A stretch of 64,000 bases of DNA. Origin: a virus. The position numbers were made by a program, and so were the translations under genes. Positions 18,168 to 42,046 of the stretch are shown here, piece by piece. Positions within the stretch are counted from its first letter, which is position 1. Each line of letters opens with the position of its first letter. Where the stretch lies: the IMG/VR virus record IMGVR_UViG_3300032898_000001, positions 1 through 64,000 of that record; one strand, given 5' to 3'. The notes under the pieces are model-generated. The model saw only the letters and a program-made list of their open reading frames with translations. It made no database searches and was not told where the DNA came from.

Positions 18168-18329
18168 ATGACTGGTCAAGAAGCGGCCGAGGACGCGCTC
18201 GCTGAAGCTCAGCAGGCCCACGATCTGCTCGACCAGGCCGAACGAGAGATGCGACCGGTCCTGGACCGGATCGACAAGGCCGTGAAGGAAAACGCCATCT
18301 TCGCCAAGTTCATGGAGACACTGAGATGA
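18168..18329 (+). CDS. Small helical protein (lysis region)
   Basis: EN-x-F motif; ATGA coupling to the next gene. Confidence 0.5.
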   Translation: MTGQEAAEDALAEAQQAHDLLDQAEREMRPVLDRIDKAVKENAIFAKFMETLR

Positions 18330-18700
18330 CCGCACTGATCGATGACGCTCTCATCCTCCTGGGTCTCCTGTGCTCCTTGTTCGTCGTCGTGAGGTACTCG
18401 ACCCAAGGCTGGTACAAGAACCCGATCGGGCCGATCATCATGATCGCGTTCGTGATCATGACATTTCTCTACGGTAAATCGGCCCTGTCTATCTTCACCG
18501 GTCACGAGCCCATGACCGGCGTGGTCTATACGGTGACCAACGCGGTGTGTGCCGCCCTCTCCGTCTACGGCGCGGTCGTCGTCGACCGCCTGGTGCGGAT
18601 TCGGTCCCGGCAACGGCGTCTGGACCGGGACCGAAAGAGAGTCGACGAGCGCCTCAGCTTCCTGTCAAGCACCTCGTCCACGTCCCCGACCGATGAGTAG
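18326..18700 (+). CDS. Three-TM holin-like membrane protein
   Basis: 3 TM segments, WYKNPIG, basic C-tail. Confidence 0.6.
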   Translation: MTALIDDALILLGLLCSLFVVVRYSTQGWYKNPIGPIIMIAFVIMTFLYGKSALSIFTGHEPMTGVVYTVTNAVCAALSVYGAVVVDRLVRIRSRQRRLDRDRKRVDERLSFLSSTSSTSPTDE

Positions 18701-19099: not shown

Positions 19100-19927
19100 G
19101 TGTACCAGGGAACCACCCCCACCAAGTTCGGTCGCTACGCGGTCGCCGAACCGCTGCGCTTCGACCTCTTTCACCACCACGACCCGGCCACCGAGCTCAA
19201 GACCGTCGACCACGAGCCCCCCGTCCCGGTCCTCGACCAGGAGGACCTCATCGCGCAGGGCATCGACACCAGCGCCCTGATCCCCGGTGCTCAGAAGGTC
19301 GACGCGCTCGGATCCTGTACCTGCAACGCGGGCACCGTGCACCTGGCCGAGCGCCTGCACGCCGTCAAACCCGACACCGTGGCCGCGCTCAACGGGATCC
19401 AGCTCGGCCAGGACGCGGTCAACAACGAGAAGTTCGCGATCTCGCTGTACCACGAGGTCACCGACCAGACCGGGGACCCGAGCCAGGAGTGGCCGCCCAC
19501 CGACTGCGGCTCGACCGGCCTGTACGTGATGACTGAGCTGGTGAAGCTCGGTCTGGCCACGTCCTACAAGACCGCGGCCAACGTCACCGACGCGCTCTCC
19601 CTCCTGCAGGACGGCACGGTCATCATCGGCACCCCGTTCTTCAACGCGTGGATGGAACCCGGCCCGGACGCGTTCCTCGACGGGAACGGCAAGACGAGCG
19701 ACCTGCAGCGCGCCATCGACTCGGGGGTCGCCGGCGGCCACGAAACCTGCCTCACCGCGATCGAGAGCATCTCCTACAGTGGCTCTACCGTCGACCTCGA
19801 GCACACGATTCTGCGGGTGCGAAACTCCTGGTCGAGCTCGTGGGGCGACAACGGGTCGTTCCGGCTGCACGCGTCGACCCTGCACTACCTCGCCTCGTAC
19901 GTCGACTTCAAGCAAGCAGTCATCTGA
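19100..19927 (+). CDS. Papain-family (C1-like) cysteine peptidase
   Basis: LDQ..LGSCTCNA (Cys), GGHE (His), VRNSWSSSWGDNG (Asn). Confidence 0.85.
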   Translation: MYQGTTPTKFGRYAVAEPLRFDLFHHHDPATELKTVDHEPPVPVLDQEDLIAQGIDTSALIPGAQKVDALGSCTCNAGTVHLAERLHAVKPDTVAALNGIQLGQDAVNNEKFAISLYHEVTDQTGDPSQEWPPTDCGSTGLYVMTELVKLGLATSYKTAANVTDALSLLQDGTVIIGTPFFNAWMEPGPDAFLDGNGKTSDLQRAIDSGVAGGHETCLTAIESISYSGSTVDLEHTILRVRNSWSSSWGDNGSFRLHASTLHYLASYVDFKQAVI

Positions 19928-35253: not shown

Positions 35254-35322
35254 GTTTCCCTCTCCACTCGTTCCTGGCCGGTATCTTAACCGCCTCGTCC
35301 CACCGATTGACACAGCCGCCTC

Positions 35323-35381: not shown

Positions 35382-35714
35382 GTGACCGAGACCCGGGTCG
35401 CCACGACGGCCGACCTGAAGACCATCTACCACCACGAGGTGGAAAACCGCCTCAGTCGCCGGCTCAACACCTGGATGATCGAGCACCTCGATCCCGACGG
35501 CTCACACGTGCTCATCGCGCGAGAGCCGTACGCCCGTCAGGCGGCCTTCTCGCTCGTGGAGCACTACCGGGCCGAGGTCCTGATGAAGTACGCGGGAGAG
35601 AGCGACCCGTTCATCGCCTTCATCGACGTCCCGGTCGTGGACTGGGAGGCGCTGCGGACCTTCACGGAGCTCCTGACCGTGAGGCGACGCAACGAGGACG
35701 GTGACACGGACTGA
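35382..35714 (+). CDS. Hypothetical protein
   Basis: GGAGG RBS, good codon bias. Confidence 0.6.
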   Translation: MTETRVATTADLKTIYHHEVENRLSRRLNTWMIEHLDPDGSHVLIAREPYARQAAFSLVEHYRAEVLMKYAGESDPFIAFIDVPVVDWEALRTFTELLTVRRRNEDGDTD

Positions 35715-35752
35715 TCGGTTAGACCGAACCAGGAACAGGAAACGGAAGAGAC

Positions 35753-36034
35753 ATGTGGTTCACGATCAAGTTTGACATCGGCAAGAAGAGCGACATCCCC
35801 GTTGAGATCGAGGCCGACACCGAGGCCGAGGCCATCGCGGAATTCAAGGCGTTCTTGCTCAACCTCGACGAGAACGGGAACGAGCCCCGCGGCTGGGACG
35901 GCTGGATCGACGACTTCAAGATCTCGGTCGACGGGGAGGATATGCACCCGATCGTGTTCCAGCCGAAGTGGGTCAGCAGCTTCGAGATCTTCGAGGGTCG
36001 CAGCCAGAACTACGGTTGGAAGTACGGAAGGTAG
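35753..36034 (+). CDS. Hypothetical acidic protein
   Basis: RBS, codon bias. Confidence 0.6.
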   Translation: MWFTIKFDIGKKSDIPVEIEADTEAEAIAEFKAFLLNLDENGNEPRGWDGWIDDFKISVDGEDMHPIVFQPKWVSSFEIFEGRSQNYGWKYGR

Positions 36035-36044
36035 GGACAGCGAC

Positions 36045-36227
36045 GTGGCGGACGACAAGTTTCGCGTCCGAAAGCAGGACAAGGCCGTGTTCAAGGCGGC
36101 CAAGAAGTGGGCCAAGCAGCAGCGCCGGGCCCAGAGCAAGGCGGCCGGGAAGGGCTGCGCCGTGGTCCTGATCGGGGCCGCGGGAGCCGTCGCGGCAGGG
36201 ATCGCCGCGTGGAAGGGGATCGCGTAG
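36045..36227 (+). CDS. Basic KxGC-TM micro-protein, copy 1
   Basis: K/R-rich N-terminus, GKGC, TM, ends KGIA. Confidence 0.75.
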   Translation: MADDKFRVRKQDKAVFKAAKKWAKQQRRAQSKAAGKGCAVVLIGAAGAVAAGIAAWKGIA

Positions 36228-36463
36228 TGGCACGAAAGGTCGGGGGACCGAACGACAAGGGCATGAAGAAGGTCATCAAGCGAGATCGCAAGCTCGCCGA
36301 CGACCACTACCGGCGAGCGCGGTACAACCACCAGAGCCCGCGCACGGGCAAGTACCGGCGAGAACCCAAGAAGCAGGGCTGCATCACCATGACCGCGTTG
36401 CTGGTTCTCGCCGCCGGTAGCGGGGTCACGGCAGTCATCTTGACAGTGAGAGGTATCGCGTGA
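36227..36463 (+). CDS. Basic KxGC-TM micro-protein, copy 2
   Basis: YRRA..N.QSP.TG, KKQGC, TM, ends RGIA; TAGTG coupling. Confidence 0.8.
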   Translation: MARKVGGPNDKGMKKVIKRDRKLADDHYRRARYNHQSPRTGKYRREPKKQGCITMTALLVLAAGSGVTAVILTVRGIA

Positions 36464-36684
36464 GCGATAAGGACCGCAAGAGCATCCGGCGCGGCACGGA
36501 CAAGACGCAGAAGGCGCTGAAGGACCACTACCGTCGCGCGAAGGTCAACCGGCAGAGCCCCCTGACCGGGCACCCGACTCGGCCGCCGAAGAAGCAGGGG
36601 TGCCTCACCATGACGGCCGTGCTGGCGATGAGTGTAGGCGGTGCCGTCACCGGGATCGTTCTCGCCGCGAAGGGACTGGCATGA
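36460..36684 (+). CDS. Basic KxGC-TM micro-protein, copy 3
   Basis: KKQGC, TM, ends KGLA; GTGA coupling. Confidence 0.8.
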   Translation: MSDKDRKSIRRGTDKTQKALKDHYRRAKVNRQSPLTGHPTRPPKKQGCLTMTAVLAMSVGGAVTGIVLAAKGLA

Positions 36685-36911
36685 ACGCCAAGAAAAAGAA
36701 GCCATTCGACGTCAAGAAGGCGAACAAGGACGCCGCGAAGGCGACCCGCCAGTTTCGACGTCGCGCCCGGCTGAACCACCAGAACCCGCTCAGCGGAAAG
36801 CCGACGCGCCCGGCCAAGAAGCAGGGCTGCCTGTCCATATCTGCGGTCCTCGTCCTGAGTGCCGGCGGGGCGGTGACCGGGATCGTCCTGGCAGCGAGGG
36901 GACTGGCGTGA
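36681..36911 (+). CDS. Basic KxGC-TM micro-protein, copy 4
   Basis: KKQGC, TM, ends RGLA; ATGA coupling. Confidence 0.8.
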   Translation: MNAKKKKPFDVKKANKDAAKATRQFRRRARLNHQNPLSGKPTRPAKKQGCLSISAVLVLSAGGAVTGIVLAARGLA

Positions 36912-37072
36912 CCTTCGACACCGGCCCGAGGGCCGGGACCCGCATCCGCCAGCCGCGGAAGCGCAACGACAAGACCGGCAACATCCGACGGAAGGGCTGC
37001 GCGCTCACCGCTCTCGCCTTCGTGGCGGGAGCGGTGGGGGCCGCGGTCGCGATCAAGACGGGAGTGAGCTAG
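36908..37072 (+). CDS. Basic KxGC-TM micro-protein, copy 5
   Basis: RRKGC, TM, ends KTGVS. Confidence 0.75.
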   Translation: MTFDTGPRAGTRIRQPRKRNDKTGNIRRKGCALTALAFVAGAVGAAVAIKTGVS

Positions 37073-37076
37073 AGAC

Positions 37077-37307
37077 GTGGACAGCCCAGATGGTTTCCGC
37101 CGCAAGGACCCGAAGGGATACGCCCGCGGCAGGGAACTCAGTCGACAAATCAACCAGAAGCGCTCGAGTAGCTACCGGGTCACGAACATCAAGAAGGCCA
37201 AGGACAACCGCAGCGCGCCGGGCTGCGCCGTGATCGCTCTCTGCGTCGGCGTCGGCCTGCCGGGCGCGATCATCGGGACCGTGCTCGTGGCGAGGGGCCT
37301 AGCGTGA
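37077..37307 (+). CDS. Basic KxGC-TM micro-protein, copy 6
   Basis: APGC, TM, ends RGLA. Confidence 0.75.
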   Translation: MDSPDGFRRKDPKGYARGRELSRQINQKRSSSYRVTNIKKAKDNRSAPGCAVIALCVGVGLPGAIIGTVLVARGLA

Positions 37308-37528
37308 GCAACCGCTCACGGCGGCGCAAGATCCGGAAGGCCCAGCGAGAGTTCCGGGAGACGGGCCGGCGCTACGGCGGGGAGACCGTCTATCCGGCGG
37401 GAGCCCGTGAGGCCAAGAACAGGAAGATCCAGGACGCGATGAGCGGCCGGCGAAAGGGCTGCGTCGTCTCGGCCATCTGGCTGAGCGCCGCGGTGATCGG
37501 CGCGATCGCGACCGTGAAGGGAAGCTGA
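37304..37528 (+). CDS. Basic KxGC-TM micro-protein, copy 7
   Basis: RRKGC, TM, ends KGS. Confidence 0.75.
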   Translation: MSNRSRRRKIRKAQREFRETGRRYGGETVYPAGAREAKNRKIQDAMSGRRKGCVVSAIWLSAAVIGAIATVKGS

Positions 37529-37529
37529 C

Positions 37530-38981
37530 GTGGAGCTGAGCGCGGACCAGGACGCGGCACTGACGGCGATCCTGAACTGGTTCATCGAGGCCCCGAGCCC
37601 CGAGTTCTGCACCAAGAAGGAGTGCTGCCCGCGGGACCACTCCCACAACCTGACCTGCGCTCAGCCTCACACCCACGGCCGGGCCCGGGACTTTGAGCCG
37701 TTCGCGCTCGGGGGCCTGGCCGGCTCGGGCAAGACCACGATGGTGAGGCAGGTGGAGTGGGCCCTGGACGTGAAGGCCGCGTTTGGGACCCCCACCAACA
37801 AGGCCGCGGCCGTGCTCCGCGGGAAGCTCCATGACGACCAGAAGGAACGCGTCCGCACCTACCACTCCCTGCTGTACAAGCCGTTCTCGCGGTTCTGGTG
37901 CGGCCAGACGGGGCGAGACGTAGTGCCCGTCGAGAACGAGGACGCGAGCGAGGACGACCTGCACGAGTTCGTGCCGTGCTGGCAGGGCACGCACCTGCCG
38001 CGCCACGACTGCTCCATCCAGGAGGAGCTCAAGTTCACGCGCCGGGAGCACCTCGAGGGCCACCGGCACCTGCTCGTGCTCGACGAGGCGTCCATGGTCG
38101 GCCAGGAGCGCGTGGAGGAGATCCGCCAGTTCGGGATCCCGCTACTCCTGGTCGGGGACCACGGCCAGCTCCCGCCCGTCAAGGCCGTCGGGGGCGCGAA
38201 CCGCTGGATGCGGAAGCCGGACGTGGTCCTCACGCAGAACCACCGCCAGGGCGAGGCCAGCGGGATCGTCACGGCCGCGCTCTCGGTCCGGGAGCGCGGG
38301 GTCCTGGACCACGGGCGGTACGGCGACGGCTCCACGGTCTGCGCGTCGGCCAGGCGGCACCCCGAGATCCTGGCCGTCATGGACCCGGAGCGGTTCGCGC
38401 CCGGTCCCGAACGCGTGATCATCTGTCACACGAACGCGGTCCGCGCCCAGGTCAACAAGCAGTTTCACGCGTTCCTGACCGACCAGCCCGGCCCCGTAGC
38501 CGGGGACCGGGTGGTGAGCCTGGCCAACGTGGAGGGCGTGGTCGTGGACCGGGTCAACGAGAAGTGGGTGCCGCGCCGCGGCGCCCCGAAGGAGGGAGAC
38601 GCCGCGCCGTTGATCGCGATCGAGAACGTGTACAACGGCTGCACGGGCACGGTCCGAGAGGTCCTGGGCTCGTCGCGGCACACGGTGCGGCTCGTGGTGG
38701 AGCTGGACGCGGACAGCCAGGGACGGCCCGGCACTCACGTCAGCGTCGCGGCCCTGAGCGCGCAGTTCGGGCGAGAGACCCAGGTCCCGTACAACGAGCG
38801 GCCGCACGGCGCGCACCAGCTCTGGGACTTCGCCTACGCCCTGACCGCTCACAAGGCGCAGGGCAGCGAGTTCGACGACGTGATCGTGCTCGACACCCAC
38901 CCGCCGGAGTACCGGGCCTGGCTGTACACGGCCATGACCCGGGCCAAGAAGCGCTTGCTCGTGATCGACTGGCGGTCGTGA
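37530..38981 (+). CDS. RecD/Dda-like SF1B helicase
   Basis: GLAGSGKTT, PTNKAA, LDEASMV, GDHGQLPPV, HRQ, YALTAHKAQGSEF, LYTAMTRA. Confidence 0.9.
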   Translation: MELSADQDAALTAILNWFIEAPSPEFCTKKECCPRDHSHNLTCAQPHTHGRARDFEPFALGGLAGSGKTTMVRQVEWALDVKAAFGTPTNKAAAVLRGKLHDDQKERVRTYHSLLYKPFSRFWCGQTGRDVVPVENEDASEDDLHEFVPCWQGTHLPRHDCSIQEELKFTRREHLEGHRHLLVLDEASMVGQERVEEIRQFGIPLLLVGDHGQLPPVKAVGGANRWMRKPDVVLTQNHRQGEASGIVTAALSVRERGVLDHGRYGDGSTVCASARRHPEILAVMDPERFAPGPERVIICHTNAVRAQVNKQFHAFLTDQPGPVAGDRVVSLANVEGVVVDRVNEKWVPRRGAPKEGDAAPLIAIENVYNGCTGTVREVLGSSRHTVRLVVELDADSQGRPGTHVSVAALSAQFGRETQVPYNERPHGAHQLWDFAYALTAHKAQGSEFDDVIVLDTHPPEYRAWLYTAMTRAKKRLLVIDWRS

Positions 38982-39226
38982 TGGCCCCTCCTCTCGTGGT
39001 GAGGCGGTTCACGCCGGGCCGGTTCAGTGACCCGGCTCACTTCGTGCTCGGTGACCCGCGAGAGCACGGCTGGCGCTGGGAGTGCCAGCTGTGTGGCACG
39101 ACCGGTCAGTACCTCAACACGCGGTGGCGCCGGGACCCGACGCTGTGGGAGCGCTGCGTGGCCGGCGGGCTGAAACACCTGCGGAAGCACGTCCCGTTGG
39201 TGCTGTCCATTCACCTGTTTACATAG
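38981..39226 (+). CDS. Small zinc-binding hypothetical protein
   Basis: WRWECQLC..H...H; coupled start. Confidence 0.45.
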   Translation: MAPPLVVRRFTPGRFSDPAHFVLGDPREHGWRWECQLCGTTGQYLNTRWRRDPTLWERCVAGGLKHLRKHVPLVLSIHLFT

Positions 39227-39268: not shown

Positions 39269-39559
39269 ATGACGATCTTTCTCCTGCTGGTCGTCGCCCT
39301 GAGCTGCTGGCTCGTGGGCTATGGCATCGGCCGGCGCCGGGCGAGGAAGCAGCTCGCGGCGCGGGCGCTACAACGAGAGCCGCTGACCTGCGACTGCGGC
39401 CACCTGTACACGTCTCACAAGGTCACGAAGCCCTACCGGTGCACCGCGGCCTTAAAGACGGGAAGCTCCCTGCCCTGTGCCTGCCAGCGCTACGTGGGAC
39501 CGGTCCCCGCGCCTACCCTGGCCGAGCTCAGGCCCGAGGCCCCGAAGGTCGGTGAGTGA
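39269..39559 (+). CDS. Membrane-anchored Cys/His-rich protein (paralog A)
   Basis: TM-LVGYG, CDCGH..H..C..CAC.RYVGP. Confidence 0.65.
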   Translation: MTIFLLLVVALSCWLVGYGIGRRRARKQLAARALQREPLTCDCGHLYTSHKVTKPYRCTAALKTGSSLPCACQRYVGPVPAPTLAELRPEAPKVGE

Positions 39560-39878
39560 CGTGGACGTCCCTACCGTGTTCGAGACGATCAGTCTGCTGC
39601 TCGTGGGCTACGGCGTCGGGAACCTGAGCGGGCGCCGTCACCGGAAGACAGCGCGACCCGCGGGACCGAAGTACACCTGCGGTTGCACCCACGACCTCTC
39701 GGTCCACGACCCGAAGACCGGCCGGTGCCACGCCGGGGTCAAGAGGCTCAAGTACGACTACGTCGGAGACGTGGTGGGCTACATCTATCCGCAGTGCCCC
39801 TGCAAGCAGTACGTGGGCCCGAAGCCGCCACCCGACCTGAAGGACCTGTGGCCCGAGGCACCGGGAGTGGGAGACTGA
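39552..39878 (+). CDS. Membrane-anchored Cys/His-rich protein (paralog B)
   Basis: TM-LVGYG, CGCTH..H..C..CPC.QYVGP. Confidence 0.65.
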   Translation: MSDVDVPTVFETISLLLVGYGVGNLSGRRHRKTARPAGPKYTCGCTHDLSVHDPKTGRCHAGVKRLKYDYVGDVVGYIYPQCPCKQYVGPKPPPDLKDLWPEAPGVGD

Positions 39879-41176: not shown

Positions 41177-41703
41177 CCGAGACGTTCAACGTCCAGCGCA
41201 GCGCCGAGGCCCGTGACCTGGTGGACGAGATGCGCCGCCAGCTGGAACGCTGGGGGAAGCAGTCCTACCCGCCCGGCACCAGCGAGGTGTACCGGGAGGC
41301 CTGTGACCTGGCCCGCGCCGAGTGTGACCAGGCGGAACGAGACGGGCGACTGACCTGGTTCCACATCCTCAAAGAGGAGTTCTTCGAGGTCGCCAGTGAG
41401 GAGGACGACCGCCGGCTCGAGAAGGAGCTGATCCAGGTCATGGCCGTGTGCGGGTCGTGGCTGCGGGACCTGCGCGAGAAGCGAGGCCACCGGGGTGCTC
41501 GGGTGGGAGTTCGGAGCGGGGACCGCGTGACCGTGGACTCGGGCCTGAACCACGACGGTCCCGTGACGGGAACGGCCGAGTTCGTCGATGAGGTGACGCT
41601 GCACGTGCGGGACGAGGTGAAGAAGGGGCTGCTGCACGTCTACGCGTGGGAGGACGTGGCGAACCTGACCGTGACGCGAGGAAGGGAGCACCAGGATGAG
41701 TGA
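41173..41703 (+). CDS. MazG-like NTP pyrophosphohydrolase domain + beta-barrel C-terminus
   Basis: E..RQ..RWG.Q; W..IL.EE..E..KELIQV.AV. Confidence 0.6.
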   Translation: MTETFNVQRSAEARDLVDEMRRQLERWGKQSYPPGTSEVYREACDLARAECDQAERDGRLTWFHILKEEFFEVASEEDDRRLEKELIQVMAVCGSWLRDLREKRGHRGARVGVRSGDRVTVDSGLNHDGPVTGTAEFVDEVTLHVRDEVKKGLLHVYAWEDVANLTVTRGREHQDE

Positions 41704-42046
41704 CGGGAAGCAGAAGCTCGTGTCGGTGTCGGTCCACGACTGCGAGCTGCAGGTGTTCCGGGCCGGCGGGAAGGGCGGCCAGCACCAGAACAAGACGAGC
41801 TCCGGCGTGCGCCTGATCCACCACCCGTCGGGGGCCCGCGGCGAGTCCCGCGAGGAACGGAGCCAGCTGCAGAACAAGAAGAACGCGTTCCTGCGGCTGA
41901 TCGAGACGCCCGCGTTCCGGGTGTGGCTCGGGAAGATGCTGCTGCAGGGCCCGCCGGCCGAGGTGGTCGTGGCGGAGGAGATGCGAGAGGAGAACCTGGT
42001 CGTGGAGGGCAAGGAGAACGGGAAGTGGGTGAGGATCGATGAGTGA
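41696..42046 (+). CDS. RF-1 domain GGQ peptidyl-tRNA hydrolase (release-factor-like)
   Basis: FRAGGKGGQHQNKTSSGVRLIH.PSG..ERSQLQNK..A. Confidence 0.9.
   Translation: MSDGKQKLVSVSVHDCELQVFRAGGKGGQHQNKTSSGVRLIHHPSGARGESREERSQLQNKKNAFLRLIETPAFRVWLGKMLLQGPPAEVVVAEEMREENLVVEGKENGKWVRIDE

Follow-up and report, generated by a model that had tools for sequence, protein, structure and literature searches.

The 64,000-nucleotide (nt) stretch of DNA analysed here, referred to below as the window, comprises positions 1 to 64,000 of IMG/VR virus record IMGVR_UViG_3300032898_000001. At positions 36045–37528 is a tandem array of seven small genes, real genes and old paralogs, which encode a previously undescribed family of phage micro-proteins that is both real and rare. 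Each protein is composed of a polybasic, mostly helical N-terminal part (N part), an invariant Gly-Cys and a helix of 15–22 residues rich in Ala, Val, Gly and Thr, with a conserved (K/R)-G-x-A end that doubles as a Shine–Dalgarno site for the following cistron. The sequence signature is that of a tail-anchored protein whose Cys would lie at the inner face of the membrane. The record is 95,531 bp long, has direct terminal repeats, is rated complete and has a GC content of 65.8%; genes for a tape-measure protein, a large terminase, a holin (PF23778) and a peptidase identify its source as a tailed phage.

A coupled array of seven genes

The genes occupy one strand and code for proteins of 54–78 amino acids (aa). 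They are listed here with the GC content at third codon positions (GC3) of each.

36045..36227, + strand: copy 1, 60 aa; basic N part, KGC, 18-residue Ala/Gly-rich helix and WKGIA end; GC3 0.93
36227..36463, + strand: copy 2, 78 aa; KKQGC subgroup, GTG start; GC3 0.81
36460..36684, + strand: copy 3, 74 aa; KKQGC subgroup, GTGA overlap; GC3 0.87
36681..36911, + strand: copy 4, 76 aa; KKQGC subgroup, ATGA overlap; GC3 0.84
36908..37072, + strand: copy 5, the shortest at 54 aa; RKGC and KTGVS end, GTGA overlap; GC3 0.93
37077..37307, + strand: copy 6, 76 aa; APGC variant, 4-nt gap after copy 5; GC3 0.84
37304..37528, + strand: copy 7, 74 aa; RKGC and VKGS end, GTGA overlap with copy 6; GC3 0.89

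GC3 lies between 0.81 and 0.93 for all seven copies, each in its own frame, and the frame with the highest GC3 switches exactly at every junction, which shows that all seven open reading frames (ORFs) are coding; the longer ORFs that a longest-ORF rule places across the array are over-extensions. A first-pass annotation of the stretch, made from the sequence, had described seven consecutive, mostly overlapping ORFs of this size, and all seven are found where it placed them. Its further observation that copies 2–4 share a motif and DNA similarity also holds: the three have RRA..N.Q.P..G in common, and the highest similarity among them is that of copy 4 to copy 3, at 74% DNA identity over 153 nt. 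The tail occurs in no other ORF of the 95.5-kb genome.

Joining the genes are one 1-nt overlap (TAGTG), four 4-nt overlaps (GTGA or ATGA) and one 4-nt gap. Each junction is preceded by a purine-rich site, and no promoter- or terminator-like sites interrupt the + strand of the array. The GTG start of copy 1 has AGGGA 7 nt upstream, and that of copy 2, which overlaps the copy 1 stop by 1 nt, is preceded by GGAAGGGGA. At the distal end, the stop of copy 7 at 37528 is separated by 1 nt from the GTG start of a helicase gene at 37530, and the last codons of copy 7, GAAGGGAAG, form the ribosome-binding site for the helicase. An internal start that would yield a tail-only peptide (AAGGG followed by GTG or ATG) was considered and rejected, as the start is not conserved and copy 4 has ATA at this place.

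The use of the (K/R)G end as a ribosome-binding site, which the first-pass annotation had missed, is evident from both position and codon choice. In most copies the K/R codon begins 15 nt before the end of the stop codon, and the sequences found there are AAGGGA, AGGGGA, AGAGGT, AAGGGC, CGGGGG and similar. Of 11 terminal Arg codons, 6 are AGR, compared with 26 of 201 in the rest of these genes and 12% across the genome (Fisher p = 0.002), and none is CGC or CGT; the terminal Gly is encoded by GGA or GGG in 15 of 21 cases, compared with 37% genome-wide (p = 0.0015). Owing to this skew, part of the apparently invariant tail end must be attributed to a nucleotide-level constraint imposed by translational coupling. 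Constraints at the nucleotide and protein levels probably both act on the end, the latter being plausible because a basic residue and a Trp flanking a membrane helix make sense. The dual-coded C terminus is a clear example of a feature able to mislead motif-based inference. The Cys codon varies (TGC 16, TGT 5), and selection here therefore acts on the residue itself.

The two halves of the protein evolve differently. In pairwise comparisons of copies 2–4, the ratio of nonsynonymous to synonymous divergence (dN/dS) is 0.10–0.37 for the tail and 0.48–0.91 for the N part; it never exceeds 1, and no positive selection is seen among these copies. The tail is under purifying selection, and the N part drifts almost freely while its basic composition is kept, a pattern that fits a charge-based function, such as polyanion binding, better than a specific fold. 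Synonymous divergence (dS) is about 0.8–3.7, which shows that the genes duplicated long ago and have been kept since.

Protein architecture and relatives

In the window copies, the Gly-Cys is followed by 18–22 hydrophobic or small residues and an end of (K/R)G(I/L)A type. This arrangement had been reported at first pass and is present in every copy, with KTGVS at the end of copy 5, KGS at the end of copy 7 and APGC in copy 6. Across all 32 aligned sequences, the only invariant residues are the Gly, the Cys and the terminal Gly. Median values for the N part are 49 aa in length and +12 in net charge, and 33% of its residues are Lys or Arg. The segment after the Cys (median 18 residues) consists of 27% Ala, 20% Val, 12% Gly, 11% Leu and 11% Thr; Gly, Ala, Ser, Thr and Cys together account for 39–73% of it (median about 55%), and its mean hydropathy is 1.5–2.4.

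The N parts of all members lack an N-terminal signal or hydrophobic segment, their best 19-residue hydropathy windows scoring −0.5 to −2.0. By comparison, 28 of the 32 members have a 19-residue window with a Kyte–Doolittle mean of at least 1.6 that ends 3–7 residues before the C terminus. A single segment of transmembrane grade near the C terminus, with none at the N terminus, is the pattern expected of a tail anchor, and the tail-anchored topology first suggested for these proteins is borne out at this level of signature. The net charge, together with the positive-inside rule, would place the basic N part in the cytoplasm.

AlphaFold2 (AF2) models built with the family alignment predict the same architecture for two distant members, in which a basic helix, modelled with confidence, is joined through a flexible linker to a terminal helix starting from the Gly-Cys. 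In copy 3, helix 3–29 (predicted local distance difference test (pLDDT) score 85–94) is followed by a linker and by helix 47–70, which starts at G47-C48 (mean pLDDT 80.5). In P0016, a relative from outside the window, helix 22–56 (pLDDT 95–97) is followed by a low-confidence linker and helix 72–90, which starts at C72 (mean pLDDT 81.2). Positions 1, 4, 8, 10, 13, 16 and 20 after the Cys are occupied by small residues in 80–100% of members, forming a stripe (A1, A4, G8, A10, G/S13, A16, G20) along one face of the helix; such a stripe is the usual signature of tight helix–helix packing. A WXG100/ESX-type signal was rejected: the W-x-G lies at the extreme end, outside a hairpin turn, and the W is missing from most window copies.

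Relatives were sought with a hidden Markov model (HMM) search of all 1.84 billion cluster representatives and an index search of 5.8 billion proteins. About 13 members were found outside the window (P0005, P0009 and P0011–P0021), each an unnamed singleton from a JGI, ENA or Logan metagenome; the representative search also returned P0010, a repeat protein of 493 aa, which is spurious. The shared tail has the consensus G-C-A-V-T-A-[IL]-x-V-G-x-A-x-x-[GS]-x-[IV]-A-T-W-[KR]-G-[WL]-[AT]. A metagenome scan revealed coupled tandem arrays on three short soil contigs, L002 and L003 with five copies each and L004 with four, the genes being joined by GTGA overlaps or 0–4-nt gaps as in the window. An array of 4–7 diverged copies is therefore found in all four readable contexts, a count that leaves aside the contigs of P0013/P0017 (107 kb), P0019 (30.5 kb), P0016 (18.5 kb), P0011 (14 kb) and P0005 (9.4 kb). 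The recurrence of the same tail in independent metagenome sequences, and of coupled arrays on three contigs, shows that the family is not a product of chance. Individual paralogs have relatives of their own in other phages, as P0005 is 74–76% identical to copy 3 and the 46-aa P0011 is closest to copy 1.

The first-pass annotation had inferred an undescribed, diversified family, and the reference collections agree: no Pfam or NCBIfam family recognises the array proteins, the PDB holds no match by profile or by fold, and PHROGs offers no family for six of the seven copies and for copy 7 only a marginal match to an unannotated family (E = 0.0096). Among 50,697 isolated phage records, tblastn of P0016 and P0002 gave nothing at E up to 1. 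Scans of IMG/VR with A2, P0013, A6, P0019 and the helicase gave no confirmed relative, and L007, the sole IMG/VR match to a strict DNA pattern (GCAVTA, 13 codons, W(K/R)GW), is a chance match inside another gene and has no tail ORF. The family was not found in GTDB scans with A7 and A2 (one genome for each of 185,579 species). No longer or fused forms were found, although a blank from such a search is weak evidence. Matches in the ESM Atlas (DUF3040, Asp4 and unnamed clusters) all score below 0.9 and were taken as noise, and an NCBIfam SecE match of copy 1 is insignificant (E = 0.1). The family is rare, being known from about ten metagenome contigs, and so is of limited general importance for as long as no cultured carrier is known.

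Genomic neighbourhood

The array makes up genes three to nine of a rightward operon starting at 35382. Features of the surroundings, and of the more distant lysis region, are as follows.

35382..36034, + strand: two small genes of 110 and 93 aa that open the rightward operon; GC3 0.91 and 0.93; no Pfam or PHROG match
37530..38981, + strand: Dda/RecD-like superfamily 1 (SF1) helicase, 483 aa, coupled to the array; phrog_325 (E = 1.1e-56), AAA_30 and UvrD_C_2 domains
18326–18700, + strand: Phage_holin_2 protein (PF23778, E = 7e-11)
19100–19927, + strand: peptidase (phrog_16701)

Past the array, the rightward operon encodes the Dda helicase, two N-terminally anchored Cys/His-rich paralogs, an RF-1-domain protein and a D5-type primase-helicase. 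Divergent from it is a leftward replication operon, ending at 35313, with genes for PolA, an SNF2 ATPase, a PD-(D/E)XK nuclease, a thymidylate-synthase-like protein and a C5 methylase. The holin and peptidase genes are likely to form the lysis cassette, about 17 kb from the array.

That the array runs into a RecD/Dda-like helicase had been recognised at first pass and is confirmed by the phrog_325 match across the 1-nt gap. An expectation that arrays would recur together with the helicase fared less well. Arrays do recur, on L002, L003 and L004, but synteny is not a family trait: on L004 (Ga0307475_10099643), the next recognisable gene, within about 400 nt downstream of the four-copy array, encodes a Thg1-like tRNA-His guanylyltransferase (1374–2258, + strand; PF04446, E = 3.5e-22). 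The downstream neighbour thus differs between phages, and the helicase linkage is not conserved.

Several other products of the region have unusual features. Before the Walker A region of the helicase (37530–38981), at about residues 27–50, is a Cys/His-rich stretch, C-x4-CC-x3-H-x-H-x4-C-x4-H-x-H, which may bind metal. The two small paralogs encoded soon after the helicase (39269–39559 and 39477–39878, + strand) are 37% identical (E = 3e-15) and match no Pfam family; both have an N-terminal hydrophobic anchor, a basic stretch, a C-x-C-x-H ... C ... C-x-C arrangement and a YVGP.P.P.L..L.PEAP.VG end. Together with the array products, they bring the small, predicted membrane-anchored proteins of the rightward operon to at least nine. 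The RF-1-domain protein (41696–42046, + strand; 116 aa; PF00472, E = 1.1e-17) resembles ArfB-like peptidyl-tRNA hydrolases or ribosome-rescue factors.

No close relative of this phage was found among isolated phages, and megablast of window positions 35700–39000 against them gave no match; no RNA run is listed as holding the stretch in the sequencing-run search, and the one public run that contains it, a wetland DNA metagenome, may be its source. An Rpf-type transglycosylase domain (PF06737) in a 241-aa protein (genome 77262–77987; L005:13262–13984) hints at an actinobacterial host. Also encoded beyond the window are an 862-aa protein with a polysaccharide deacetylase domain (genome 68738–71326; L005:4738–7323) and a 1,292-aa protein with an ADP-ribosyltransferase exoenzyme domain (PF03496, E = 1.7e-22; genome 87706–91584; L006:3706–7581).

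Candidate functions and known counterparts

Small membrane proteins are among the least understood phage gene products and often control host takeover, exclusion or lysis timing. Here the features that need explanation are the coupled rows of 4–7 diverged copies, the invariant Gly-Cys, predicted to lie at the inner face of the membrane, and the dual-constrained C-terminal residues.

The explanation we favour, tentatively, is that the array encodes tail-anchored, mutually packing membrane tethers whose polycationic arms would hold nucleic acid, replication complexes or anionic lipid. The genes are translated as a coupled train, the K/R-G codons of each serving as the ribosome-binding site for the next and finally for the helicase, and the proteins would be made early, alongside the replication genes. 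Each protein would leave the ribosome before its single C-terminal helix enters the cytoplasmic membrane, placing three or four residues outside, the Gly-Cys at the inner face and the basic helical N part in the cytoplasm. The small-residue stripe would let copies pack into homo- or hetero-oligomers, and the resulting membrane-bound polycationic platform would keep a polyanion (phage DNA or RNA, or replication complexes) or else anionic lipid bound there, functionally like the phage phi29 proteins p1 and p16.7. Binding of nucleic acid is suggested by a single property, the median net charge. Tethering is favoured because the array lies between the leftward replication operon and the genes for the Dda helicase and D5 primase-helicase.

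Several points weigh against a tether. The hydrophobic segments are short (median 18 residues) and contain about 55% small residues, which makes stable spanning of the membrane uncertain. As the next recognisable gene after the array on L004 is Thg1-like, a role in replication rests on the context of this single genome. Neither the retention of 4–7 diverged copies nor the invariance of the Cys is obviously explained by tethering, and the PHROG search revealed no similarity to p1, p16.7 or any PHROG beyond the marginal match of copy 7. Beyond the architecture, we infer membrane insertion, oligomerisation and the polyanionic ligand from sequence, and for this reason, as well as the unconserved helicase linkage, our confidence in the tether falls short of even.

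A different and rather unlikely function is that of a viroporin- or pinholin-like pore depolarising the host, for takeover or superinfection exclusion, or of an anchor resembling signal-arrest-release (SAR) domains that would release the polybasic arm when the proton-motive force drops. The weakly hydrophobic segment, its high content of small residues and the basic residues before it match SAR composition (PMC9239132), a small-residue stripe with Thr/Ser is typical of the lining of small helical pores, and coupled expression at high dose would suit oligomer-forming peptides. However, the array is remote from the lysis genes, where the phage has its own holin beside the peptidase, and no holin model matches the array proteins. 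Co-transcription with replication genes is a further difficulty, as early depolarisation would hurt the phage itself, and known SAR domains are N-terminal and accompany an enzyme, whereas the segment here is C-terminal and has no enzymatic cargo.

About as improbable as a pore is a role as transmembrane decoys or inhibitors, in which each tail would bind to the membrane helices of some protein of the host or of a competing phage (for example a transporter, part of the division or secretion machinery, or a route of DNA entry) and the paralogs would widen the target range. Such a role would resemble that of small regulatory membrane proteins and superinfection-exclusion proteins. In its favour are the conserved packing face, the fast-evolving N parts (dN/dS up to 0.91), the early-operon position and the phage specificity implied by absence of the family from the genomes of 185,579 species in pattern scans; the retention of 4–7 diverged copies in every array seen fits a conflict system. 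Diversification of targets predicts the opposite of what is observed, however: the tail that would contact the target is conserved, the variable part is cytoplasmic and constrained in composition only, and dN/dS is never above 1. No target is known (PADLOC was not searched).

More speculative again, and to be regarded as a long shot, is a new kind of phage membrane switch, in which a SAR-like, Gly-Cys-headed C-terminal helix would assemble from 4–7 paralogs into a hetero-oligomer with polycationic arms at the inner face. On a change in membrane potential the helix would exit the membrane or open a pore, so that membrane energisation would govern whether phage nucleic acid or replication complexes are released or captured, with the juxtamembrane ring of Cys as a metal or redox sensor. 

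Cleavage or acylation at the Gly-Cys, which would yield a short Cys-headed hydrophobic peptide or a lipidated basic one, is very unlikely. All 32 sequences do have the Gly-Cys where the helix begins, the Cys itself is under selection, and an invariant Cys adjoining a terminal hydrophobic helix recalls lipobox proteins and the MYXO-CTERM and CGP-CTERM sorting signals. Yet there is no signal peptide or hydrophobic region ahead of the Cys. A lipoprotein would have [LVI][ASTVI][GAS]C after a signal peptide; here a polybasic stretch leads up to the Cys, K, R or G mostly occupy positions −3 and −2 in place of the L-[AS] of a lipobox, and the hydrophobic region comes after the Cys, as the first-pass annotation had correctly noted in setting the lipobox aside. 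Its own suggestions of a Cys-containing sorting signal or a prepilin-like K-x-G cleavage site do not survive. As a type IV prepilin leader the N part would be 22–75 aa long, with C rather than F or M after the G, and the Glu expected at +5 is missing. In an NCBIfam scan of 10 members, run to E = 10, neither sorting-signal models, those of CTERM type included, nor N-methyl models matched. The helix is followed by a single K/R and then G-x-x instead of a basic cluster, no hydrophobic −3 residue is present, no gene for a sorting enzyme is seen nearby, and export of an N part with about 15 net-positive charges is implausible.

That the ORFs are chance products of GC-rich DNA, in which many long spurious ORFs are expected, or a train of leader ORFs that sets helicase translation, for which the coupling of all junctions and the delivery of ribosomes to the helicase might speak, is a negligible prospect given the frame-specific GC3, the purifying selection on the tail, the motif kept with different codons across unrelated contigs and the different gene that follows the array on L004.

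Among described proteins, the topology is that of bacterial tail-anchored membrane proteins, an operational class studied, for example, in Escherichia coli (PMC6794478). The array proteins share with them the absence of an N-terminal signal, a single C-terminal hydrophobic helix followed by 3–7 residues and a positive-inside N part, but this is a topological class and not a homologous family, and the array proteins differ in being far smaller, polybasic and marked by an invariant Gly-Cys, in occurring in phage-like contigs only and in being encoded in coupled tandem arrays in every context read.

SAR domains are defined as weakly hydrophobic segments rich in Gly, Ala, Ser and Thr that follow basic residues (PMC9239132). 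With those of endolysins and with the first transmembrane domain (TMD1) of pinholin S21, the array proteins have in common about 20 weakly hydrophobic residues, half of them Gly, Ala or Thr, and basic residues ahead of these. Membership of the SAR class was nonetheless rejected: its domains are N-terminal, on an exported enzyme or holin, and encoded in lysis cassettes, unlike the C-terminal array segment, which is encoded far from the phage's holin. Membership of the holins or pinholins was rejected likewise, on the lack of a model match and the location of the array outside the lysis cassette.

Class I viroporins such as influenza M2 and coronavirus E are proteins of 60–100 residues with a single helix, a polybasic stretch and a juxtamembrane Cys, and they oligomerise. 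The likeness is a resemblance only, as these proteins belong to eukaryotic viruses, have the helix first and then the basic tail and carry a Cys that is palmitoylated by host enzymes not known from bacteria.

A functional parallel is with phi29, whose early membrane proteins p1 and p16.7 have been proposed to anchor replication to the membrane (PMC4974454). Like these, the array proteins appear to be small, early, membrane-associated phage proteins, and their genes are set among those for replication. They differ from p1 and p16.7, which are single-copy, lack the Gly-Cys motif and share no sequence similarity with the array proteins, so that the parallel is one of inferred function only. In p16.7 an N-terminal anchor precedes a folded DNA-binding domain. 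Should the array proteins act as a tether or a switch, they would add to the phi29 group a second, unrelated case of phage replication organised at the membrane.

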